Positions 1 to 9,616 of a stretch of DNA of 64,000 nt are shown piece after piece. Each line of letters starts with the position of its first letter. The first letter of the stretch is position 1. The translations under genes and the position numbers were made by a program. The DNA is from a virus. The notes beneath the pieces are model-generated. The model did not search any database. It saw only the letters and a program-made list of their open reading frames with translations, and had not been told where the DNA came from. Where the stretch lies: IMG/VR virus record IMGVR_UViG_3300045988_137032, positions 128,001 to 192,000 of that record; one strand, written 5' to 3'.

Positions 1-696
1 TCTCATATAAATGAGACCGCTATCCGTGATAGCAAGTTCAACCGCTCCAATTCCACTAGAATCAGTCCATCCGTCAAAGCCAATCACAGTTGCATAAGCT
101 GTATTTGTTCCTGCATCTGGTAAACCGATAACTGTAGAATCTTTAATTCCTACAAAATTAAAACCATTTGTGTAATCACTAGGTTTTGTAGCAGTATCCC
201 TAGTATCTTCGGTTATCTCAAGGCTATCATGCGTATGCGTATTAGGACTCTTGGTGTCCAGTTCTTCTTTCAGAAGTCTGCCACAGTTTGCAGACAATGC
301 AGATTCACTGTCCGTAGAATCTAACCAGTCTTTCACCAGCGGTGAAACCTTATACCACGTGATATTAGCATTTGCTAATTTTTTACCGTAGAACACACTT
401 GTCTCAAGATTAAAGATATAGTCGCCAGTTCCCGCTACGAATACATCATATCCATAGCTCTTACCGGATGTCAATTCATCTTTGATCTTAATAGCAGGTG
501 TGTTTTTGACGTTGGAAGTATCCGTTACATTGTCACCGTCTTTATTGACGCTGTATGTAAAGCTTCCATGATACCAACCGGGTTCTGTAATCTGGATAAT
601 ATCAGTCATAGTACTGGAAATTGTAATCGGTTTATTCAATGTAATATTAGATCCATCGTTTCTAATTAGAGATGCTTTCTTATCTCCAATAGTCAT
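1..696 (-). CDS. Tail fibre protein, N-terminal part (gene runs out of the window at position 1)
   Basis: Minus-strand frame is open from ATG at 696 to position 1. It is missing from the ORF track because there is no stop in the window. My translation is MTIGDKKASLIRNDG...ITEPGWYHG...SESALSANCGRLLKEELDTKSPNTHTH...LIYMR. It carries fibre-type motifs. Confidence 0.6.
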   Translation of the reverse strand, partial: MTIGDKKASLIRNDGSNITLNKPITISSTMTDIIQITEPGWYHGSFTYSVNKDGDNVTDTSNVKNTPAIKIKDELTSGKSYGYDVFVAGTGDYIFNLETSVFYGKKLANANITWYKVSPLVKDWLDSTDSESALSANCGRLLKEELDTKSPNTHTHDSLEITEDTRDTATKPSDYTNGFNFVGIKDSTVIGLPDAGTNTAYATVIGFDGWTDSSGIGAVELAITDSGLIYMR

Positions 697-751
697 AGAA
701 TCACATCCTAACATAAAACTAACATTACCCCGTAGGGGAATAAGATAGTTC

Positions 752-808
752 CTGAATGGTATCCAATAAACAAATCCGTAACGGATTTGTTTATTGGATA
801 CCATTCAG
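752..808. repeat. 57-nt near-perfect palindrome (28-bp arms) in the divergent fibre-gene intergenic region
   Basis: CTGAATGGTATCCAATAAACAAATCCGT / ACGGATTTGTTTATTGGATACCATTCAG read directly. No T-run follows on either strand. Confidence 0.9.
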
Positions 809-859
809 CATATTGTAGAAATTGTAAATGAAGCAATATGTATGAGAGAGGTGGTTAAT

Positions 860-1750
860 ATGGCATCTGAAAAAGTTTTATATAAAGCTGAAGATGGCAC
901 ATTAATTAATCTTAGTACTAAGGTAATCAATAATACAACAACTGATAGTACAACGGATGCATTAAGTGCTGCTCAAGGCAAAGTATTAGCTTCTAAGTTT
1001 ACTACTCTTACAAAGAGTTCAGTTGGACTCGGTAATGTAGATAATACAGCCGACTCCGCTAAAACTGTAAAAGCTGCAACTAAACTTCAGACATACAAGG
1101 CTGGCAGCACTACAGAAACATATGGTGATGAGTATCCGTTTTATGTGCAGTGGCAGAGTGATAATACATTGAAACTGACTTGTGATGGTTATAAAACAAG
1201 AGTAGATATAGCTGATTCTGCTCTCCCATTGTCGGGTGGAACTTTATCCGGGCAGGTTAATTTTGGGTCCAGCTCATACTATGTGAAAGCAGATGGTACT
1301 GCTAATTTCAAGACAGTTACGGGTGCAGTCTATAACGACTATGCTGAGTTCTTCCCTCGTGGAGAAGCCACTGAACCTGGCGATATCGTAGCACTCGATC
1401 TTTCTTCTGATCATGAATCTTACATCAAAGCAACTGCAACAAGTAAAATTGTTGCTGGTGTCCATTCCGATGAGTATGCTATGCTTATTGGTGGTGATAA
1501 GGTTGATGATGGGAATTACGTGGAAAAGAATATTGAAAAATATATTCCCGTAAGTCTCTGTGGCCGTGTCTTCTGCAAGTGTGTTGGCAAGATTCACCGT
1601 GGTGATACGATTGTCGTATCGGATATTCCCGGTATCGGACGAGCAAAATTACCCAACGATTATGTGGAAAATACACAGATCGTTGGATACGCAGTGGATG
1701 AAGACATGAACGAAGAGATTCGTCGAGTACGTATTCGTGTAAAGGGGTGA
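860..1750 (+). CDS. Tail fibre protein with C-terminal peptidase-G2/intramolecular-chaperone-like domain
   Basis: ORF track 794..1750. I moved the start to the ATG at M23, behind GAGAGGTGG. Motifs ALSAAQGKVLA and GLGNVDNTADSAK are typical of phage fibres. The C-terminal NDYAEFFPRGEATEPGDIVAL...GVHSDEYAMLIGG resembles the G2 IMC domain, from memory only. Confidence 0.6.
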   Translation: MASEKVLYKAEDGTLINLSTKVINNTTTDSTTDALSAAQGKVLASKFTTLTKSSVGLGNVDNTADSAKTVKAATKLQTYKAGSTTETYGDEYPFYVQWQSDNTLKLTCDGYKTRVDIADSALPLSGGTLSGQVNFGSSSYYVKADGTANFKTVTGAVYNDYAEFFPRGEATEPGDIVALDLSSDHESYIKATATSKIVAGVHSDEYAMLIGGDKVDDGNYVEKNIEKYIPVSLCGRVFCKCVGKIHRGDTIVVSDIPGIGRAKLPNDYVENTQIVGYAVDEDMNEEIRRVRIRVKG

Positions 1751-1756
1751 TGTGAA

Positions 1757-2620
1757 ATGGCAAGTCAAGGTTCAAAGATTACTGCTTCTGATTTTACCTC
1801 TTTGAAAAATCTCGTCAATAGCGAAATTGGTCGGCGAGGTAAAGCAGAAGGTACTGGGCAGAACCAGAGCTACGGAAGTTTATCTTCTTATTCTGGATCT
1901 GCTTATCAATATACAACTACTCCTGCAGCAGGAGTAAAGATTGCTACGGAGCATATTACGAAGATTACAACACCAATCGGTGCAATCAATGGATCAACTC
2001 CTTCCTTTTCCAGTGGAACTGTGGTAAGAGCATCCGATATTGCAAATGCCGCAAATACACTAAGTGGACTCACTGTCATTAAGGAAAACGCTTCCTCTAG
2101 TGGCTGCGCTGGTAAATGCAGTGGACTTTGCTCTTCTGGATGTAATACAACATGCTCAAGTTGTTCCAGTAACTGTGGTAGTGGATGTGCAACTTGCGCT
2201 AGTGGTTGTTCTAGTGGATGCACGAATACATGTTCTGGAGGCTGTTCAGGTAGTTGCGATGGCGATTGCAATGGCTGTTCCGGCTGCGACGGATGTAGTG
2301 ATACCTGTAAAACAGACTGTAGTGGCGGCTGTAAAGAACGCTGTAATGCTAACTGTGCTAGTGATTGTGGTGGATCTTGTAGATTTACCTGCCTCGCACT
2401 ATGCGGAAATTGCCAAAATTCTTGTGATGATTCATGCTCTGGCCATTGCGGAACAAAATGTACAGATAGCTGCGACCTTGACTGTACTGGATCATGCAAA
2501 GGAAGTTGTAGTGGCGGTTGTGACGGTAGTTGTAGTGGCGGTTGTAAGAGTTGCTCTGGCTCATGCGAAGGAAACTGTACAGGTAGCTGTAGTGGATGTT
2601 CCGGTAAATTCTTATTTTAA
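1757..2620 (+). CDS. Cysteine-array (C-x3-C ladder) protein, probable fibre-associated structural protein
   Basis: 287 aa. Residues ~117-281 hold 44 Cys by my count, almost all spaced C-x3-C, in a Gly/Ser-rich background. The gene starts 6 nt after the fibre gene stop. Confidence 0.75.
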   Translation: MASQGSKITASDFTSLKNLVNSEIGRRGKAEGTGQNQSYGSLSSYSGSAYQYTTTPAAGVKIATEHITKITTPIGAINGSTPSFSSGTVVRASDIANAANTLSGLTVIKENASSSGCAGKCSGLCSSGCNTTCSSCSSNCGSGCATCASGCSSGCTNTCSGGCSGSCDGDCNGCSGCDGCSDTCKTDCSGGCKERCNANCASDCGGSCRFTCLALCGNCQNSCDDSCSGHCGTKCTDSCDLDCTGSCKGSCSGGCDGSCSGGCKSCSGSCEGNCTGSCSGCSGKFLF

Positions 2621-2647
2621 TAGATAGTGTGGAATGAGGTGCTATAA

Positions 2648-3229
2648 GTGAGCGTTTATAAACCAAATAATGATCACGAACTTAAGAAAGTCTTTATAGA
2701 AAATACCCCGATAATTAAGTTCGTTTCCCATGATGTATTTGAAGACAACGATTGGAAAGAATTCATGCAGCAATGCCCCGATAATTCGAATCAGTTCGAA
2801 TGGTGCATTTGGGCCGCTGGAATTTTCCGTTGCGATAATATCATGGATGATAAGTTTGACACATACGCGGCATACTGCGCATCCGTGATTCAAAGCATTG
2901 CAAAAGATTGTAATGTGGAGTGTTCTGACGATCGTATGATCGTCCTTGCATATGGTCTCGCAGCACGGACTTTCAATTTTGAAGCTGCAAAACTTGAAAA
3001 GTCCGATTATAATTTTGATGCAATGCTTAATGCATCTGATTACGAATGCACCGATGATATTGATTTCTTATCAATGTGGGAAATGCTTGTCATGACTATC
3101 CGATTCATTCGTGTTCTTGATCCGTCAAATGTCAAAGCACTGATCAAAGTCATGAAAAAGGTAAATTCCATTCGTGATAAGTATAATGAAGTATACACCC
3201 GGATGAGTAACATGACAGCTAATTATTAA
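2648..3229 (+). CDS. Hypothetical protein (Cys-array/rSAM operon)
   Basis: 193-aa ORF with a GTG start, co-oriented and tightly spaced within the operon. Confidence 0.6.
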   Translation: MSVYKPNNDHELKKVFIENTPIIKFVSHDVFEDNDWKEFMQQCPDNSNQFEWCIWAAGIFRCDNIMDDKFDTYAAYCASVIQSIAKDCNVECSDDRMIVLAYGLAARTFNFEAAKLEKSDYNFDAMLNASDYECTDDIDFLSMWEMLVMTIRFIRVLDPSNVKALIKVMKKVNSIRDKYNEVYTRMSNMTANY

Positions 3230-3254
3230 TATATTTTAGGGAGAGTGCACGTTT

Positions 3255-3554
3255 ATGAAAATTATTAGCATTACGACTCAAGAAAGCGAAGCCGTTGAGC
3301 GGGCTTATTATGAGTCGCAATCATATGAATCCATCGTTTCTATTCTCTGTAGAGAATTGAATGAAAACGCAAATCCTTTAACATCTGAGATGCTCCATCA
3401 TTATATCGACTTGTGCAAAACTGCAAAGATGCGTCTCAAATTGACGCAAGACAATGTAATTGGCAGATACGTCGACAAGTCGGAGTTTAATAATGCCCCG
3501 GTAACATTTGATTTTGAGCGCGAGGAGATGTTGGTATCAGATGAAAAAGCGTAA
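3255..3554 (+). CDS. Hypothetical small protein, translationally coupled to the radical SAM gene
   Basis: 99-aa ORF behind GGGAGAG. Its 3' end overlaps the rSAM start by 14 nt. Confidence 0.6.
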   Translation: MKIISITTQESEAVERAYYESQSYESIVSILCRELNENANPLTSEMLHHYIDLCKTAKMRLKLTQDNVIGRYVDKSEFNNAPVTFDFEREEMLVSDEKA

Positions 3555-4905
3555 TAAGCGTCTCTATGAAGAGTATACTGATATGGTCCAAAGGCTGTAT
3601 AAGAAAGACTTTGTTCTCAGCGGAGCATTATCAGCATTGAAAATTTGCAGATATGTGACTTTTCAGATTACGAATGCTTGCAATCTTCGGTGTTCTTATT
3701 GCTATGAGCATAATAAGAACTGTGGAGCCATGAGCCTTGATACAGCCAAGAAAGTCGTCGACTATATTCTTGACTTGTATGCTGACAACACATCTGATTT
3801 CATCTCTCAGCAAACAAAGGGTGTTGTTCTTGATTTTATCGGCGGAGAGCCTCTTCTGGAAGCTGAACTGATTGAGCATATTTGCGACTATTGGTTCGAG
3901 CAGTGCTATAAAAGAGACATTCCTCTCGGCCCGTTTACAAGAATCTCGTTTGCTACAAATGGTAAGGCTTGGTTTGAGCCTGCATCCATGCATTTATTTG
4001 AAAAATACCATGATATCATGTCGGTCACAGTATCTATTGATGGTGTTCAAGAACTTCATGATATGTACCGTGTTGACAGTAATGGCGTTGGAAGTTTTGA
4101 AATGGCTTGGCGAGCTTTTCAAGATGCAAAAGCTCGATATGGCTGGCTTAATTCCAAGATGACATTTGTTCCCGGATCAATCAAATATTTATACTCCAGT
4201 GTGAAAATGATGATTGATGAAGGGTGCACTTATATTCATGGTAATTGTGCATATGAGCCCATGTATACAAATGAAGATGGGAAAAACTTGTATAACGAGC
4301 TTAAGAGACTTGCCAATTATATCATAGATGAGCATCCGGATGTATTCTTTGCAATGTTTAATCCAGATGAATATGGTGAAGCAGTCGATTTAGTGCATGA
4401 TGATAACAACTACTGTGGTGGTACGGGAAATATGCTATCATTTGCTCCGGACGGCAAAGCATATCCATGTATCAGATACGCTCCCATTTCTATCGGAAAT
4501 GAGAAAGCAGCCAAAGTATGCTTTGGCGATGTCAATAATGGTGGACTATACGCAACCGAAGAACAACGCAAAATTAAGCGTGAGTTGGATGCTATCACCC
4601 TGACATCGCAATCTACAGACGAATGTATCAATTGCCCTGTATCCAAAGGATGTGGATGGTGCTCTGGATATAATTACGAAAAATATGGTACTGCAAATAA
4701 GAGATATACTGGAATTTGCAAAGCACACAAAGGCAATGTCCTTGCTGTGTACTATTATGTGAACACTCGGTATCTTAAACTTGGCGATACGGAACCGAAG
4801 AAGATTAAACTGCCTTATGATGAGGTAGTAGAAATTCTCGGTAAAGAAGAAGCTGACAATCTTTTCGCCCTTGAAAAGGAAGCTTTTTCTCACTACGAAA
4901 TGTAA
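3541..4905 (+). CDS. Radical SAM enzyme with SPASM domain (anSME/peptide-maturase-like)
   Basis: CNLRCSYC (CX3CX2C) and GGEPLL are present. The C-terminus has C-x12-G-x4-C, then CINCPVSKGCGWC, then a further Cys. I moved the start to ATG 3541 (M12 of track ORF 3508..4905). Confidence 0.85.
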   Translation: MKKRNKRLYEEYTDMVQRLYKKDFVLSGALSALKICRYVTFQITNACNLRCSYCYEHNKNCGAMSLDTAKKVVDYILDLYADNTSDFISQQTKGVVLDFIGGEPLLEAELIEHICDYWFEQCYKRDIPLGPFTRISFATNGKAWFEPASMHLFEKYHDIMSVTVSIDGVQELHDMYRVDSNGVGSFEMAWRAFQDAKARYGWLNSKMTFVPGSIKYLYSSVKMMIDEGCTYIHGNCAYEPMYTNEDGKNLYNELKRLANYIIDEHPDVFFAMFNPDEYGEAVDLVHDDNNYCGGTGNMLSFAPDGKAYPCIRYAPISIGNEKAAKVCFGDVNNGGLYATEEQRKIKRELDAITLTSQSTDECINCPVSKGCGWCSGYNYEKYGTANKRYTGICKAHKGNVLAVYYYVNTRYLKLGDTEPKKIKLPYDEVVEILGKEEADNLFALEKEAFSHYEM

Positions 4906-4911
4906 AAGAAT

Positions 4912-4958
4912 AAGCACACAAGCTGTGATTTTATATCCGGCTTGTGTGCTTATTTTTT
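4912..4958 (+). terminator. Intrinsic terminator of the fibre/rSAM operon
   Basis: AAGCACACAAGC ... GCTTGTGTGCTT stem followed by a T6 run. Confidence 0.85.
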
Positions 4959-5000
4959 CATATCATAGTAGACGGTTAAATATGAAAGGATGTGTTTACC

Positions 5001-5282
5001 ATGGCAAAAATTTATTCTGTATTTACTTTGATTGGTGGTTATGGCCCTGAGATAGAATCATCCTATTTTGATCATGATAGAGCAGTCAATCATCTTTATG
5101 AACTTTGCGATTACTATAATGAAGAAATGCGGAATGATCATGTACCGGCTGCTGAATGTCATGAGCCGTATGAAGTTGATGAAGAGACTGAGAAGATATT
5201 TTACCCAATAAAATATAAAGATTATCCTAAGCTTAAGCATATGATTATTACAGCATGGATTAGAGAATTGGAGGTTCAATAA
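5001..5282 (+). CDS. Small hypothetical protein, paralogue 1 of 3
   Basis: Track ORF 4992..5282, with the start moved to the ATG at M4. It ends ..WIRELEVQ, like the next gene. Confidence 0.6.
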   Translation: MAKIYSVFTLIGGYGPEIESSYFDHDRAVNHLYELCDYYNEEMRNDHVPAAECHEPYEVDEETEKIFYPIKYKDYPKLKHMIITAWIRELEVQ

Positions 5283-5284
5283 TT

Positions 5285-5560
5285 ATGAAAGTTTATGCTA
5301 TTATTTCCACTTATGCATCAAATCCTGAAGCTGAGCTTGAATCTATTGCTTATTCTAGTAGAGAGAAAGCGATTGCGTATTTGTATTCATTATGTGATAA
5401 ATATAATGCATGGTGTAGAAAATCATCTTATCCAGAGCAGCGTACTCGGATATATGAAGTTGATGAAATTAACGGCGCCATCTATTATAAATACATTGAC
5501 TCTTTAAATCGTGTTTCTCGTATTGATGAAACATGGATTAAAGAATTAGAGGTAGAATAA
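5285..5560 (+). CDS. Small hypothetical protein, paralogue 2 of 3
   Basis: 91 aa, 2-nt spacing from the previous gene. It shares the MK(V/I)Y..I start, a LY.LCD.YN core and the WIKELEVE end with the previous gene. Confidence 0.65.
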   Translation: MKVYAIISTYASNPEAELESIAYSSREKAIAYLYSLCDKYNAWCRKSSYPEQRTRIYEVDEINGAIYYKYIDSLNRVSRIDETWIKELEVE

Positions 5561-5562
5561 TT

Positions 5563-5766
5563 ATGAAAATTTATGTTATCGTATGTAGAAATAACTATTC
5601 CACGTGGATAGATGATAAAACCTTTACTGAAGAAGCAGAAGCATTCCTATATGCTTACCGTTCAATTTCAAGTCCCGTAATGTGGAAAGTATGTCCGATT
5701 AATGTTGATATCTCTAATGAGATGAGTGTTTCTGACACACTACTTGGACAAAATAAGGATGTCTAG
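5563..5766 (+). CDS. Small hypothetical protein, paralogue 3 of 3 (shorter)
   Basis: 67 aa, MKIYVIV.. start, 2-nt spacing. Confidence 0.55.
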   Translation: MKIYVIVCRNNYSTWIDDKTFTEEAEAFLYAYRSISSPVMWKVCPINVDISNEMSVSDTLLGQNKDV

Positions 5767-5992
5767 ATTGAAATTCTCTATGACCCAAGAAACCACTTAG
5801 GTACTAGGCATGTTATCTCTCCTTCTCATATAAAGTATTATGCGCTTCCTACAGAGCAAGGTGATATAAATAACCTTAAAAGAGGATTAATACGTCGTAT
5901 TTATCAAGGGCTTTAAACGCTTGATGATGCGCATACGATAAAGATCATTATCTGAAAACACCAAATTAACGTAGAGAGAGAAAGGAGGAAAT

Positions 5993-6544
5993 ATGATGGA
6001 AATAAAAGAAGCCATTGTGGAAGCTTGTAGTAATAGTCTCATTACTGCAACAGAAGCAATGCAGTTATTTTCCATTATAACGGAATCCGAAGTAAGTGAA
6101 GTTGATAAAGACTTTAAACCAAAAGAAAGTATGAAATTATCATCTTTTCAGAAAATCCATATTACAGAATCCATCACAGAAGAATACAAAAGTAAATATC
6201 CGGATCTAAAGCATGTAAGATGCAAAGATACGGATACATACAAGTGTGATGGATATATGTGGATGGACGGAGAAAATCTAGTATGCCATGTAGGATCATG
6301 TGAATACTTGGATGATAAAACAAAATGGATCGTATCGTTAGAAATAACGAAAAACTATAAAGGTCATGGATTATCAAAACAACTGATTGATTATGCTGTG
6401 AAGAATATGAAATGCAAATATCTATCAGTGGATAAGAGCAATAAACTCGCAAAGATGATCTATGACGAATATGGGTTTAAAGTATATCAAGAAGACAAGA
6501 AAATGTATTATATGACACTGGATAAAAATCCAGTAAAATCATGA
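5993..6544 (+). CDS. GNAT-family acetyltransferase with CTS-like N-terminus
   Basis: N-terminus is MMEIKEAIVEA. GNAT motifs are ITKNYKGHGLSKQLIDYAV and SNKLAKMIYDEYGFKVY. An AAAGGAGG RBS precedes it. Confidence 0.7.
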   Translation: MMEIKEAIVEACSNSLITATEAMQLFSIITESEVSEVDKDFKPKESMKLSSFQKIHITESITEEYKSKYPDLKHVRCKDTDTYKCDGYMWMDGENLVCHVGSCEYLDDKTKWIVSLEITKNYKGHGLSKQLIDYAVKNMKCKYLSVDKSNKLAKMIYDEYGFKVYQEDKKMYYMTLDKNPVKS

Positions 6545-6565
6545 TGAAAGGAGAATATAGCATAT

Positions 6566-7648
6566 ATGGATTGGATGAAATTACAACTTTCTATTTATGA
6601 AAGTTATTCCAATGGTGATATTACAAAAGACGCATGCGATAGTCTTATCAATTCCATCTATAATAAGATTGGTGATAGTATCGTTGAAGAAGCAGAAAAT
6701 GCTGAAAACGAATTCATCAATACTTCACTTAACGTGCTTACTGAAAATACTCATGATAGCAATTTACTTATGGAAGCAGCTAATACGTTCGCTGATAAAG
6801 TAAAAGCATTATGGGAAAAATTTAAAGCGTGGCTGAAAGCTTTAATTAATAGGCTATTTGGCAGAAAAGAAAAACCTTCCGGGAAAGTAAATGGTCCGAA
6901 AGGTTTAATGAATGCTTTAAATACGCTGAAATCGAAAGTGAAATCACTGAAAGGTGCTACTGGAGCTAAGGTAGCAGTAGCTATCGGTGGTATTGCAGTT
7001 TCTATCGCTGGTGTAAAGAAAGTTCTCAGCAACAAAGGCGATACAGAAGAAGTAGATGCTAATGCTGTAGATAAATCTTGTAAAGATATCATGGATGGTT
7101 GCCAATCAGTATCTGAAGATCAATCCAAAAAAAAAGGTACTGTGGATAAAGAGAATCCTGTATCAAAAGTTATCAAAGCACTCCGTGATACTGCATCATT
7201 AATTGGAAGTGTTGTGAGTGGATTGATCCATCGCAAGGCTTCCAATCAAACTGAAAATAAAGCGTCAAATAATCCAGTTCTTAGTAAAGAATTTATGGAC
7301 GCAATCAATAAGAAAGATAATCTTGCTGTAAAGATTATGATTAAGGATGCTATTGTTTTTGATGCCACAGACACAAAAGGGATTCGTAGTGTTCCTCCTA
7401 TGCTTTCAGAAGCTAAGAAGAGTACTCCTGAAATTTTTGACAACCAAGAAAAATTCGATGATATGACAGATGATAAGTCCAAATGGACAATGGATTATAT
7501 GAATTTGCATCTTGTGAAATTGATGAGTGGTAACTTCACGGAAGAGAATATTCATTATCTTGAAAAAGTTGCTAAAATAGCGATGAATAATAATTCTAAG
7601 AAAGATACTACATCAAAATCTTCTGATAATGATAAAGAAAGGGGATAG
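6566..7648 (+). CDS. CTS-like family protein (long N-module, type A)
   Basis: Starts MDWMKLQLSIYESYSNGDIT and has the helix ALWEKFKAWLKALINRL plus a hydrophobic segment AVAIGGIAVSIAGV. Contains an in-frame A9 tract at 7127..7135. Confidence 0.7.
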   Translation: MDWMKLQLSIYESYSNGDITKDACDSLINSIYNKIGDSIVEEAENAENEFINTSLNVLTENTHDSNLLMEAANTFADKVKALWEKFKAWLKALINRLFGRKEKPSGKVNGPKGLMNALNTLKSKVKSLKGATGAKVAVAIGGIAVSIAGVKKVLSNKGDTEEVDANAVDKSCKDIMDGCQSVSEDQSKKKGTVDKENPVSKVIKALRDTASLIGSVVSGLIHRKASNQTENKASNNPVLSKEFMDAINKKDNLAVKIMIKDAIVFDATDTKGIRSVPPMLSEAKKSTPEIFDNQEKFDDMTDDKSKWTMDYMNLHLVKLMSGNFTEENIHYLEKVAKIAMNNNSKKDTTSKSSDNDKERG

Positions 7649-7653
7649 GAAAA

Positions 7654-8685
7654 ATGACAAATTTACAGCACGCTATTATGGAAGCTTCCAATTCAGATCT
7701 CATCTCATTTGAAAATGCATCAATGATGCTTACTATGTATGAGTCTGATGGTGAAGAAAAGGACACTATGGCCGATAAGATTAAAAAAGCTTGGGAGGCA
7801 TTTAAGAAATGGCTTCGTGACCTTATCAATAAGCTTACTGGTAAAAAGATTAACGACCGTGAGGTTAAAGTTCAGGAGCATAAGTGGAATGCTCTTAACA
7901 AATGCGCAAGCTATGTCAACAAAGCAGCGTCTAAGAATTTTACTGATGAAGATTCTGATGATGATCCTGTGATTGATAATCTTTTCATTGCATCAGAGTA
8001 TTTTACTGCAAAGACAGCAATTTCTCAGAAGATGGCAACTGTTACAGTCCAAGAGGTTCATGATCTGACAGTTAAAATTCATAAAGATCTTGATAAGATC
8101 ACTGAGAAAGCTGAAAATGGTACTCAAACACAGAAGAAGACCACAATGATGTATGTGCGGAAGATTTCCAATAACGTAACCTCTATTGAGAATCAGTGCA
8201 CGTCTTCTGATCATGCAAACTATGACACTGCTATTAAGCGTGCTTATCAGGATTATTTCGATAAGAATGTCAAGGACTATATGTACGTGCTGAATCTTCA
8301 GCTGATGTGCTCTAATGAGGGTCGCCCTGAAGATGACGATGGCCGATATGATTCGAAAGCCGACGCATATCGAGATTTCTGTCAGTCAATTAAAGCAAGA
8401 ATTGACGCTGAGTATTACAGAATTTCCAGAAATCCCGATATTGCAACTACCGAGGAAGAGAAGGCTAAACTACAAAAGGATCTTGAAGCTGGCAATGTGT
8501 CCGGCTATGCTGGTGATGTAATAAATCTTGCTAAGTTTGTTGGTAAGTGCTGCTCTCAGGTTAAAGCAAATAATTCTAGTAGCCTGAAGACAAAGTCTGG
8601 TAAGATTTATGATGAATATCATAAGATTATCAATTATCTTGCCTTCGAGATGAGATGGTGCAGGAATGCCAGACTGACTCACTAA
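7654..8685 (+). CDS. CTS-like family protein (short N-module, type B)
   Basis: Starts MTNLQHAIMEASNSDLIS and has the helix KKAWEAFKKWLRDLINKL. Confidence 0.7.
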   Translation: MTNLQHAIMEASNSDLISFENASMMLTMYESDGEEKDTMADKIKKAWEAFKKWLRDLINKLTGKKINDREVKVQEHKWNALNKCASYVNKAASKNFTDEDSDDDPVIDNLFIASEYFTAKTAISQKMATVTVQEVHDLTVKIHKDLDKITEKAENGTQTQKKTTMMYVRKISNNVTSIENQCTSSDHANYDTAIKRAYQDYFDKNVKDYMYVLNLQLMCSNEGRPEDDDGRYDSKADAYRDFCQSIKARIDAEYYRISRNPDIATTEEEKAKLQKDLEAGNVSGYAGDVINLAKFVGKCCSQVKANNSSSLKTKSGKIYDEYHKIINYLAFEMRWCRNARLTH

Positions 8686-8695
8686 CAACTTATTT

Positions 8696-8744
8696 AAAAA
8701 TACACGTCTTATTAGTGATAATACTAATAAGACGTGTATTTTTT
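8696..8744. terminator. Bidirectional intrinsic terminator between convergent genes
   Basis: AAAAATACACGTCTTATTAG ... CTAATAAGACGTGTATTTTT. Confidence 0.85.
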
Positions 8745-8746
8745 AA

Positions 8747-9616
8747 TTAAGAACGGACAACAAGATCTTTACCATTTCCAATAATACGATGACCGTTTTT
8801 ATCGAAAACGTCTGTTTCCGGATTTACGTATACTCGTTCAACAGGAACTGGTTTATTACTAAAAACACTCGGAAGAGATTCCACCCAAACAAGAATCCGA
8901 TGGAGAGTTCGAATCAGCTTACCTGTATTGGTTTGATCGCAATAATGTTGCTCAAGAGTAGAAATGATCTTATTGATACTCTTCTTGATGGTATCCACAA
9001 TACCAATCAGAGCAGCAACACCAACAAGCACCATGCCTTTCGAAATACGAACGGCATCAACTCCTGCAGACACTGTAGTCCAACCGATCATACCGCACTG
9101 AACCACAATCTCCAAAAGGTTTTTATACCAGGCTTCATCATCAATTGAACGTTTTGCTTTCTTGATATCCTTAGCAGATGGACTATCATTCGGATAAAAG
9201 AATTGAGTTACCTTAGCCGAAATATCAATAAGACTCTTATCAATATTTTTCAGAAGATCAACTGCTGCTTTCGGGAGAGAAACCTTTTCTTCACGCTTAC
9301 GTGCGCCAAGCTTTGTAAGAAGTTTGTCCCAAAGTTCAGATACCCATTTCTTAAACTTCGCAAGTGCATTGGAAACCTTCTGGCCGAAAGTTTCTGCTTT
9401 CTTTTCAAAATATGCACATGCAGCATCACCGTTTGCATAGTCGATAGCAGTCTCAATGAAAGTGGATTCTGCAAGATTCATTTCTGAAATAGCTTCTTCC
9501 ATATATGAAGATGATTCAGAATCAATCATATTCATAAGATCAAGTGCTGCCTCTGATGAAATAGATCCATCAGATGCGCCCTCATAAATCATAGATTTCA
9601 AATCATAAAAATCCAT
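8747..9616 (-). CDS. CTS-like family protein (type A)
   Basis: Starts MDFYDLKSMIYEGASDGSIS and has the helix ALAKFKKWVSELWDKL. Confidence 0.7.
   Translation of the reverse strand: MDFYDLKSMIYEGASDGSISSEAALDLMNMIDSESSSYMEEAISEMNLAESTFIETAIDYANGDAACAYFEKKAETFGQKVSNALAKFKKWVSELWDKLLTKLGARKREEKVSLPKAAVDLLKNIDKSLIDISAKVTQFFYPNDSPSAKDIKKAKRSIDDEAWYKNLLEIVVQCGMIGWTTVSAGVDAVRISKGMVLVGVAALIGIVDTIKKSINKIISTLEQHYCDQTNTGKLIRTLHRILVWVESLPSVFSNKPVPVERVYVNPETDVFDKNGHRIIGNGKDLVVRS

Follow-up and report, generated by a model that had tools for sequence, protein, structure and literature searches.

The closest described relative of the genes studied here is the CXXX-repeat radical S-adenosylmethionine (SAM) system. 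It is computationally defined, the NCBIfam models TIGR04114-04119 describing its enzyme, its two accessory proteins and its CXXX targets. In Bacteroidales the operon encodes between one and five precursors that join a cysteine ladder to a twin-arginine signal (SRREFFKKAAK...), the TIGR04115 radical SAM enzyme, the SPASM-only protein TIGR04119, a 90-aa TIGR04116 protein (the "CXXX repeat peptide modification system protein", CXXX_rpt_assoc), and its own TatA and TatC; in Clostridia the precursors have a short leader. We have analyzed an operon in a 64-kb stretch of viral DNA (record IMGVR_UViG_3300045988_137032, positions 128,001 to 192,000; hereafter the window), in which a tail-fibre gene is followed by genes for a 44-cysteine ladder protein and a radical SAM enzyme. 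On balance we favor, with modest confidence in the statement as a whole, the view that this operon is a divergent phage version of the CXXX-repeat system that has been grafted into a tail-fibre module.

The PapB, CteB, SCIFF and QhpD enzymes all make Cys-derived thioethers. PapB acts on a repeated C-x3-D motif with a spacing of four residues. QhpD, a radical SAM/SPASM enzyme, introduces several Cys thioethers within a protein subunit of a larger assembly (the gamma subunit of quinohemoprotein amine dehydrogenase), and not into a free peptide. In phages, the T4/T2 gp38 adhesins, with their Gly-rich motifs, and chaperones of the Tfa/gpG type are encoded downstream of fibre genes.

Organization of the operon

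The window is part of a gut-metagenome jumbo phage of about 255-262 kb, whose proteins include a large terminase, a DNA polymerase and a major head protein. In the map of open reading frames (ORFs), those at 860..1750, 1757..2620, 2648..3229, 3255..3554 and 3541..4905 (genes 1 to 5) all have the same orientation. The features of the locus are:

1..804, minus strand: partial second tail-fibre gene, running off the start of the window; PF22337 (Phage_fiber_rpt), E 4.2e-8
860..1750, plus strand: gene 1, tail-fibre protein of 296 aa; PF22337, E 2.9e-8, and PHROG tail-fibre/minor-tail matches
1757..2104, plus strand: gene 2, N-terminal domain, residues 1-116; predicted helical fold, HMMER family
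2105..2599, plus strand: gene 2, Cys ladder, residues 117-281, with 44 Cys; PHROG 6085, E 5e-11
2648..3229, plus strand: gene 3, conserved accessory protein of 193 aa; syntenic homologues in related phages
3255..3554, plus strand: gene 4, protein of 99 aa remotely homologous to TIGR04116; hhalign probability 96.6%
3541..4905, plus strand: gene 5, radical SAM/SPASM peptide maturase of 454 aa; TIGR04115, E 2.5e-88; PHROG 1802, E 3e-61
4905..4958, plus strand: intrinsic terminator ending the operon; hairpin and U run

An earlier note on this DNA, made from the letters alone, had described five co-oriented genes from 860 to 4905, a 14-nt overlap of the 99-aa gene with the gene that follows it, and a single intrinsic terminator at the end of the operon. 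All of this is borne out. The overlap of genes 4 and 5 lies at 3541..3554, and the hairpin at about 4905..4958 has a calculated stability of -33.4 kcal/mol (z = -9.68 relative to shuffled sequences), with a U run after it; a simple terminator scan did not pick it up. Gene 1 has an alternative TTG start at 794. The partial fibre gene at 1..804 is transcribed away from the operon, which thus forms one arm of a divergently transcribed fibre locus; this gene has no homologue among the related loci that were fetched. A megablast comparison of positions 1..9000 with GenBank phages gave zero matches.

Gene 5 groups with the peptide maturases

Among the NCBIfam models the one that fits gene 5 best, by a wide margin, bears the name "radical SAM peptide maturase, CXXX-repeat target family" (TIGR04115); it is matched over positions 3-359 of its 359 with a score of 297 bits (E 2.5e-88). 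The next models are PapB (150 bits, 1e-43), followed by the CcpM, SCIFF and QhpD maturases, and the best match in the PDB is CteB (5wgg, E 2e-14). The earlier note had called the enzyme anSME-type, that is, similar to the anaerobic sulfatase-maturating enzymes (anSME), and had proposed a comparison with anSME, CteB and PapB. That comparison places gene 5 with the peptide maturases, TIGR04115 being best and CteB the closest solved relative, and beyond the shared SPASM architecture the anSME label has to be abandoned. The anSME model (TIGR03942 / PRK13745) scores 52 bits (5e-14) against a cutoff of 349, there are no anSME chains among the PDB matches at E <= 0.001, and the YydG-type epimerase model lies outside the 25 best matches listed.

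The cysteine pattern described in the earlier note is real. CNLRCSYC is found at residues 47-54 (nt 3679..3702), and the seven SPASM-type residues C292, C310, C362, C365, C371, C374 and C393 (nt 4414..4719) are invariant in an alignment of six homologues. Pfam recognizes the Radical_SAM domain at E 1e-9, and the SPASM model at an E value of only 0.022. The core of the enzyme starts around residue 38, leaving no N-terminal extension able to hold a RiPP recognition element (RRE; PqqD-like) domain, where RiPP denotes a peptide that is made by the ribosome and modified after translation. A viperin or defense reading of gene 5 was set aside, as the pVip matches (46 bits) reflect the shared radical SAM core only.

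Among relatives, the enzyme of the gut phage locus L024 scores 400.6 bits with TIGR04115, above its cutoff, and its target has the same architecture of N-terminal domain plus ladder; the enzyme of the bacterial locus L002 scores 630 bits. In a neighbor-joining tree of 105 radical SAM proteins the clades follow the type of precursor. Enzymes associated with the N-domain type fall into two phage/prophage clades, and that of the window belongs to a divergent sister clade. By this tree the CXXX system has clearly moved between cells and phages.

The enzyme and the ladder occur together

The survey that the earlier note had suggested covered 21 viral loci from a scan of viral contigs and 80 bacterial loci from a genome scan, linkage being scored when a ladder ORF lay on the same strand within 4 kb of the radical SAM gene. 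The pairing was found to be nearly universal, in 20 of the 21 viral and 77 of the 80 bacterial loci. All 20 viral loci with sufficient flanking sequence carry the ladder, and two of the three bacterial exceptions are truncated at the radical SAM gene. In the window the ladder gene is 0.9 kb upstream of gene 5, on the same strand. The order fibre, ladder, gene 3, gene 4, radical SAM is kept down to 62% identity in the enzyme and 31% in gene 3.

In the earlier note the ladder had been proposed as the target on which the neighboring enzyme acts. This is upheld by the family assignment, by the co-occurrence and by the agreement of enzyme clade with precursor type, and we conclude that the gene 2 ladder is very probably modified by a maturase of the CXXX lineage.

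The ladder of gene 2

Gene 2 (1757..2620) encodes 287 aa. An exact count confirms the 44 cysteine residues in about 165 aa of the earlier note, and with them the almost unbroken C-x3-C ladder: all lie within residues 117-281, with 35 C-x3-C and eight C-x2-C spacings. The 165-residue ladder is composed of 27% Cys, 20% Ser and 19% Gly, and past it there is a C-terminal tail of SGKFLF, the gene ending at 2620. Within the units the x1 position holds S or T and the x3 position S, G or T, and Gly takes up x2 in 44-46% of cases. The first units are the most conserved, with C117, C121, G123 and C125 invariant and a consensus of GCxxxCTGLC.

Six strains with radical SAM enzymes 95-100% identical to one another were compared. 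All 44 Cys columns are invariant, while of the 128 remaining ladder columns 79 are invariant and 49 variable; in the N-domain 106 of 116 are invariant. The ratio of nonsynonymous to synonymous substitution (dN/dS) is 0.3-0.5 at the non-Cys sites of the ladder versus 0.05-0.1 in the N-domain, a difference of 3- to 8-fold, although the ladder value stays below 1 and repeat slippage could contribute to it. This fits a fixed Cys scaffold with exposed x positions that are weakly constrained or diversifying. Across relatives the length of the ladder ranges from 19 to 95 Cys. Since the cysteines are invariant among strains in which other positions vary, and since the architecture recurs in 69 of 77 representatives (see below), the ladder is neither a chance occurrence nor an artefact of assembly.

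At the DNA level the only tandem repeat in the ladder is a weak 12-nt array at 2505..2546, so that the periodicity belongs to the protein and is not a recent DNA repeat. The ladder is also covered by an antisense ORF (1906..2499, minus strand) and an out-of-frame ORF (2064..2627, plus strand), both of which look like by-products of repetitive, low-complexity sequence. Such alternative-frame ORFs may confuse gene callers, and this could explain why the family is under-annotated.

The target models TIGR04114 and TIGR04117 have no match to gene 2 at E <= 0.1, and searches of Pfam, PHROG and, with Foldseek, the PDB revealed no sequence or fold similarity to known structural proteins. A Foldseek search of BFVD with the gene 2 model returned only uncharacterized homologues. 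One BFVD entry, A0A8S5VD55, is a gut-virome homologue of gene 2 that was automatically named "TNFR-Cys domain-containing protein" in UniProt, a name that the pattern of the Cys ladder seems to have triggered spuriously.

The N-terminal domain of gene 2

The ladder is preceded by an ordinary domain of about 116 aa, as the earlier note had it. AlphaFold2 (AF2), using an alignment of 59 sequences, predicts residues 1-120 with a predicted local distance difference test score (pLDDT) of about 90, as a helical fold with helices at 10-28, 42-46, 64-78 and 92-107. An exhaustive HMMER (phmmer) search, with clustering at 50% identity, found the domain in 126 clusters. When only the 77 representatives with a length of 140 aa or more are considered, 69 have a ladder, of 8-37 Cys, and the other eight mostly look frameshifted or chimeric. 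A word-indexed protein search with the domain gave two homologues only, and tblastn a single unannotated gut contig; there were zero fold matches to it in a Foldseek search of the PDB with the gene 2 model. The N terminus of gene 2 has no RR motif for twin-arginine translocation (Tat) and no signal peptide. By its distribution the N-domain is evidently dedicated to ladders, and it takes the place that a Tat signal or a leader has in precursors from cells.

Genes 3 and 4

The earlier note had suggested that the 193-aa and 99-aa genes might be partners of the enzyme. For the 99-aa gene 4 this stands. Comparison of the gene 4 family (20 sequences) with 62 bacterial TIGR04116-like proteins by hhalign gave a probability of 96.6% (E 5.6e-10) in an alignment of 85 columns that spans the full length, with controls of 0.2% for the gene 3 family and 0.9% for a reversed alignment. 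A narrower profile of 14 sequences reached only 69%, the addition of the Clostridia-prophage versions raising this to 96.6%, and direct comparison of gene 4 with TIGR04116 by BLASTP and profile hidden Markov model (HMM) found no match. In the gut phage locus L024 (5686..7320) a gene 4/TIGR04116-like domain is fused to the N terminus of the radical SAM enzyme, and in the Bacillota prophage L027 (5355..6014) the gene 4 domain is tandemly duplicated in one ORF of 219 aa. Such fusion and duplication provide Rosetta-stone evidence, which strongly indicates that gene 4 is a partner in the CXXX system.

AF2 predicts gene 4 with a pLDDT of 91.6, as a helical hairpin packed on a small three-stranded sheet. 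Foldseek found generic helical hairpins only, with no significant PDB match. An RRE-like role for gene 4 thus finds no support in the fold, which is not that of a winged helix-turn-helix.

For the 193-aa gene 3 the suggestion finds no backing in family similarity. It has no match in Pfam, PHROG, NCBIfam or PADLOC and no similarity to TIGR04119. Syntenic homologues are 31-33% identical in L009 and L018 and 15% in L001, and no relatives are detectable outside the phage clade of the window.

The link to the tail fibre

The tail-fibre context that the earlier note had ascribed to the operon is real and conserved: PF22337 is found in both gene 1 and the divergent gene at 1..804, and the context is kept in diverged phages. 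In all 20 viral loci the cassette adjoins a fibre gene, inside the tail module and not at the positions typical of morons. In diverged phages gene 1 has homologues whose alignment with it is confined to residues ~120-296 (the C-terminal ~175 aa, 1217..1750), their N-terminal parts differing in length and sequence. It follows that the portable unit comprises the C-terminal domain of the fibre, the ladder and the maturation genes. This fibre domain has a similarity to the Peptidase_G2/intramolecular chaperone (IMC) type that is weak, being found in three of six family members with a best E of 0.006; the window's own copy of gene 1 has no Peptidase_G2 match.

A 99%-identical relative, L005, has at 672..2510 (minus strand) a second, diverged pair of fibre and ladder genes without a radical SAM gene of its own. 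The second ladder has 30 Cys, and its N-domain is 55% identical. One set of maturation genes in L005 may thus serve two ladder proteins. The region equivalent to this second pair lies just outside the 64-kb window.

The same arrangement recurs at larger distances. In L001 the cassette stands after two large genes that look baseplate-like, as judged from size, position and a Big_2-like repeat, and before further fibre-like genes. In the Bacillota prophage L027 the order reads as putative baseplate genes, fibre, ladder, gene 4 twice, radical SAM, holin-like and endolysin-like genes, the baseplate (P2 W/J/I-like) and lysis labels having been assigned by reading translations by eye; its ladder protein has 95 Cys in 473 aa. 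L024, L026, L029, L030 and L033 have a layout similar to that of L027. The cassette, in every case placed after the conserved C-terminal domain of a fibre gene, is found both in jumbo gut phages and in P2-like prophages of Clostridia.

Distant analogues in cultured phages and in bacteria

Erwinia phage Asesino and Salmonella phages SPN3US and SPLA5c contain distant analogues, with radical SAM proteins about 26% identical. Each encodes two proteins of ~130 aa, with a 50-aa leader and 21 Cys, just upstream of two radical SAM genes. Around these ladder pairs there are also a gene for "virion structural protein 20", some giant genes and one for a DUF4376 protein. The SPN3US ladders have "virion structural protein 20" on one side and the two radical SAM genes on the other, with the DUF4376 protein close by. 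The earlier note had argued that crosslinks other than disulfides would suit a phage of strict anaerobes. The hosts of these jumbo phages, Erwinia amylovora and Salmonella, are not strict anaerobes, which weakens the redox argument as a general explanation.

The ladders are at ~143.4-144.3 kb of JN641803 in SPN3US (L106/L108), at 3084..3482 and 3496..3897 in SPLA5c (L025), and at 3088..3477 and 3420..3887 in Erwinia phage Asesino (L003). In the deposited annotation they are missing from SPLA5c, truncated in SPN3US (gp166), and called on the wrong strand in Asesino (gp186). In SPN3US the radical SAM genes are gp163 and gp164, and unannotated ladder sequence falls between gp166 and gp167. Radical SAM matches in Campylobacter phages were also inspected; CP220 was set aside, as its context is different and does not involve a fibre.

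Among bacteria, Margulisiibacteriota/Termititenax (L095, L101-L103, L105) have giant ladder ORFs of ~500-670 aa with runs of 42-69 regularly spaced Cys next to TIGR04115-like radical SAM genes; in the survey of the genomic loci the Margulisiibacteriota ladders had runs of 57-69 Cys. Beside these ladders are proteins of 130-150 aa, the C-terminal half of which weakly matches a TIGR04116-like profile (E ~5e-4). In the Bacteroidales loci (L040-L099; e.g., L002, 5226..6270) TatA and TatC directly follow the maturation genes. This suggests that the product of the Bacteroidales operons must be exported folded or crosslinked, and dedicated Tat machinery would agree with a product whose rigidity or crosslinks are already in place when export begins.

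Comparison with described systems

How does the phage locus differ from these systems? It shares with the CXXX system an enzyme of the same lineage, a long C-x3-C target rich in Gly, Ser and Thr, a TIGR04116 homologue and tight linkage of the genes. The pairing of enzyme and ladder is thus not without precedent, since NCBIfam already models the CXXX enzyme, accessories and targets (TIGR04114-04119). However, the phage form lacks TIGR04119, a Tat signal and a short leader, having a 116-aa folded N-domain in their place; it has in the window an additional 193-aa gene; and it sits in a tail-fibre module rather than a Tat-export operon. There are no Tat genes in the operon of the window. A search of the literature for phage radical SAM proteins associated with tail fibres, or for SPN3US gp163-167, found nothing relevant, and the phage form, with its N-domain, its loss of TIGR04119 and Tat, its linkage to the fibre and its wide spread, appears undescribed in the literature searched.

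Gene 5 resembles PapB, which makes freyrasin, and CteB, which makes thermocellin, in its radical SAM/SPASM architecture with seven auxiliary-cluster Cys, PapB being its second-best family and CteB its best PDB match. It nevertheless falls far below the cutoffs of these families, and neither an RRE domain nor an RRE-like fold was detected. The substrates also differ. The i+4 position of the ladder is Cys, and not Asp, Glu or Thr, and the ladder belongs to a 287-aa protein with 44 sites, not to a short peptide. QhpD, with its partner QhpC, is similar insofar as TIGR03906 matches gene 5 at 7.5e-20; it is, however, distant, and that system makes few crosslinks, has no repeat ladder and yields a periplasmic enzyme rather than part of a virion. 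With the gp38 and Tfa types the likeness is one of arrangement, and by analogy gene 2 may be compared with them in that it directly follows the fibre gene, is exchanged together with the C-terminal domain of the fibre, and combines a conserved N-terminal part with a Gly-rich, fast-varying C-terminal part. There is no similarity in sequence or fold, and neither a Cys ladder nor a dedicated radical SAM enzyme is known there.

A proposed role for the operon

We propose the following scheme. The operon would be co-transcribed to its one terminator, and the fibre context suggests late expression. In the cytoplasm gene 5, with the translationally coupled gene 4, would act on the 44 Cys of the gene 2 ladder, most likely converting Cys thiols into S-to-C thioether crosslinks along the four-residue repeat, as in the nearest characterized relatives. 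We give Cys-derived thioether chemistry on the ladder an even chance. The 116-aa N-domain would be a docking handle, its partner being the enzyme complex, the fibre protein of the upstream gene, or both. The matured ladder could then be a redox- and protease-insensitive, fast-diversifying accessory or distal element of the fibre. That the product is borne by the virion or fibre we judge to have somewhat less than an even chance. The complete proposal, in which the mature ladder is a virion component forming a polythioether-stapled, disulfide-independent rod or tip on the tail fibre, is more tentative still, and we hold it as possible rather than probable.

Several observations weigh against this scheme. 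The score of gene 5 is below the curated TIGR04115 cutoff (297 versus 350 bits), and TIGR04119 was not found by BLASTP, using the L002 protein as query, in the window or any locus of the N-domain type, although it is present in nearly all Bacteroidales loci. The i+4 acceptor slot in the ladder is Cys and there is no conserved acidic or Thr acceptor, so that the mechanism of PapB and CteB does not simply transfer. The AF2 model of the ladder has a pLDDT of <50, i.e., no confident structure. In the literature searched we found neither an experimental study of any member of the CXXX system nor virion proteomics covering the ladder ORFs of SPN3US-like phages. The slot immediately after the fibre gene is also the usual one for fibre-assembly chaperones that do not enter the virion, and the C-terminal domain of the fibre may be cleaved off as an autocleaved chaperone, and would then not be a docking site.

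These last points lead to an alternative in which the ladder protein is a non-virion assembly factor, a Tfa-like chaperone or scaffold required for folding or trimerization of the C-terminal domain of the fibre, possibly modified by the radical SAM enzyme. Gene 2 holds the chaperone slot, its ladder travels only with a fibre domain that is itself weakly IMC/Peptidase_G2-like, and in SPN3US the neighborhood includes a DUF4376 protein as well as a product annotated as "tail assembly chaperone". Yet chaperones are not normally hypervariable repeats of 19-95 units requiring a radical SAM enzyme of their own, the 3- to 8-fold faster change of the x positions relative to the N-domain is easier to reconcile with an exposed surface than with a template for folding, and the cellular homologues, having Tat signals, are exported end products. 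We consider a chaperone unlikely. A little less likely in our view is a ladder that is mainly a binder of metal or Fe-S with free thiolates, the enzyme either acting on another substrate or performing a reaction other than crosslinking (epimerization, methylation, Cys-to-formylglycine conversion or another side-chain change). A Cys content of 27% does resemble that of metallothionein-like binders, no conserved thioether acceptor residue is evident, and the cellular homologues are exported by Tat, as proteins loaded with a cofactor typically are. Export of this kind would, however, be equally explained by a crosslinked product that cannot thread through Sec, and the nearest characterized enzymes (PapB, CteB, SCIFF and QhpD) all make thioethers from Cys. 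The low score of the anSME model (52 bits) and the position of the YydG-type model outside the 25 best matches listed do not favor the other reactions, while the strict co-occurrence of enzyme and ladder argues that the ladder is the substrate.

Could the cassette be unrelated to the virion altogether? It might be a moron-like RiPP cluster with a free product that is released at lysis or acts in the infected cell and is, for example, metal-binding, antimicrobial, adhesive or redox-active, like the exported products of bacterial CXXX systems. The bacterial relatives are stand-alone, with Tat or leader precursors and, in Bacteroidales, their own TatA/TatC, pointing to an extracellular product, and the system has clearly moved between cells and phages. 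But the phage precursors have no signal peptide and possess a phage-specific N-domain, in none of the 20 viral loci does the cassette stand apart from a fibre gene, its place being in the tail module rather than at moron positions, and fibre and ladder have been duplicated as a unit. Of the three alternatives this seems to us the least probable.

If the fibre-borne, thioether-stapled ladder that we propose is correct, no earlier structural protein of a virus would have been made with radical SAM chemistry of the RiPP type; this one would be the first, in which a fixed Cys scaffold allows the exposed x positions and the length to diversify and so follow host receptors. RiPP enzymology would then reach from small secreted peptides to the architecture of the virus particle, with a spread extending from the jumbo phages of the gut and the prophages of Clostridia to cultured phages of the SPN3US-like type and of Erwinia. 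It would account for a widespread family (at least 126 clusters at 50% identity have the N-domain, and the ladder genes often go uncalled) to which the libraries and records searched give no informative name or function, and for the engineering of phage host range it would offer a scaffold that is modular and redox-proof. SPN3US and Erwinia phage Asesino, which have distant versions, are cultured and genetically tractable, so that the hypothesis is directly testable, and the phage system would offer a first handle on the CXXX-repeat chemistry that is common in gut Bacteroidales.

Genes beyond the terminator

Right past the terminator, at 4992..5766 and 5993..6544, there are three small genes, followed by a gene resembling GNAT acetyltransferases. 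Two of the small genes (d1 and d2) are paralogous, being about 36% identical, and have a weak match to DUF1828. None of the genes past the terminator is kept alongside the cassette in the more distant loci.

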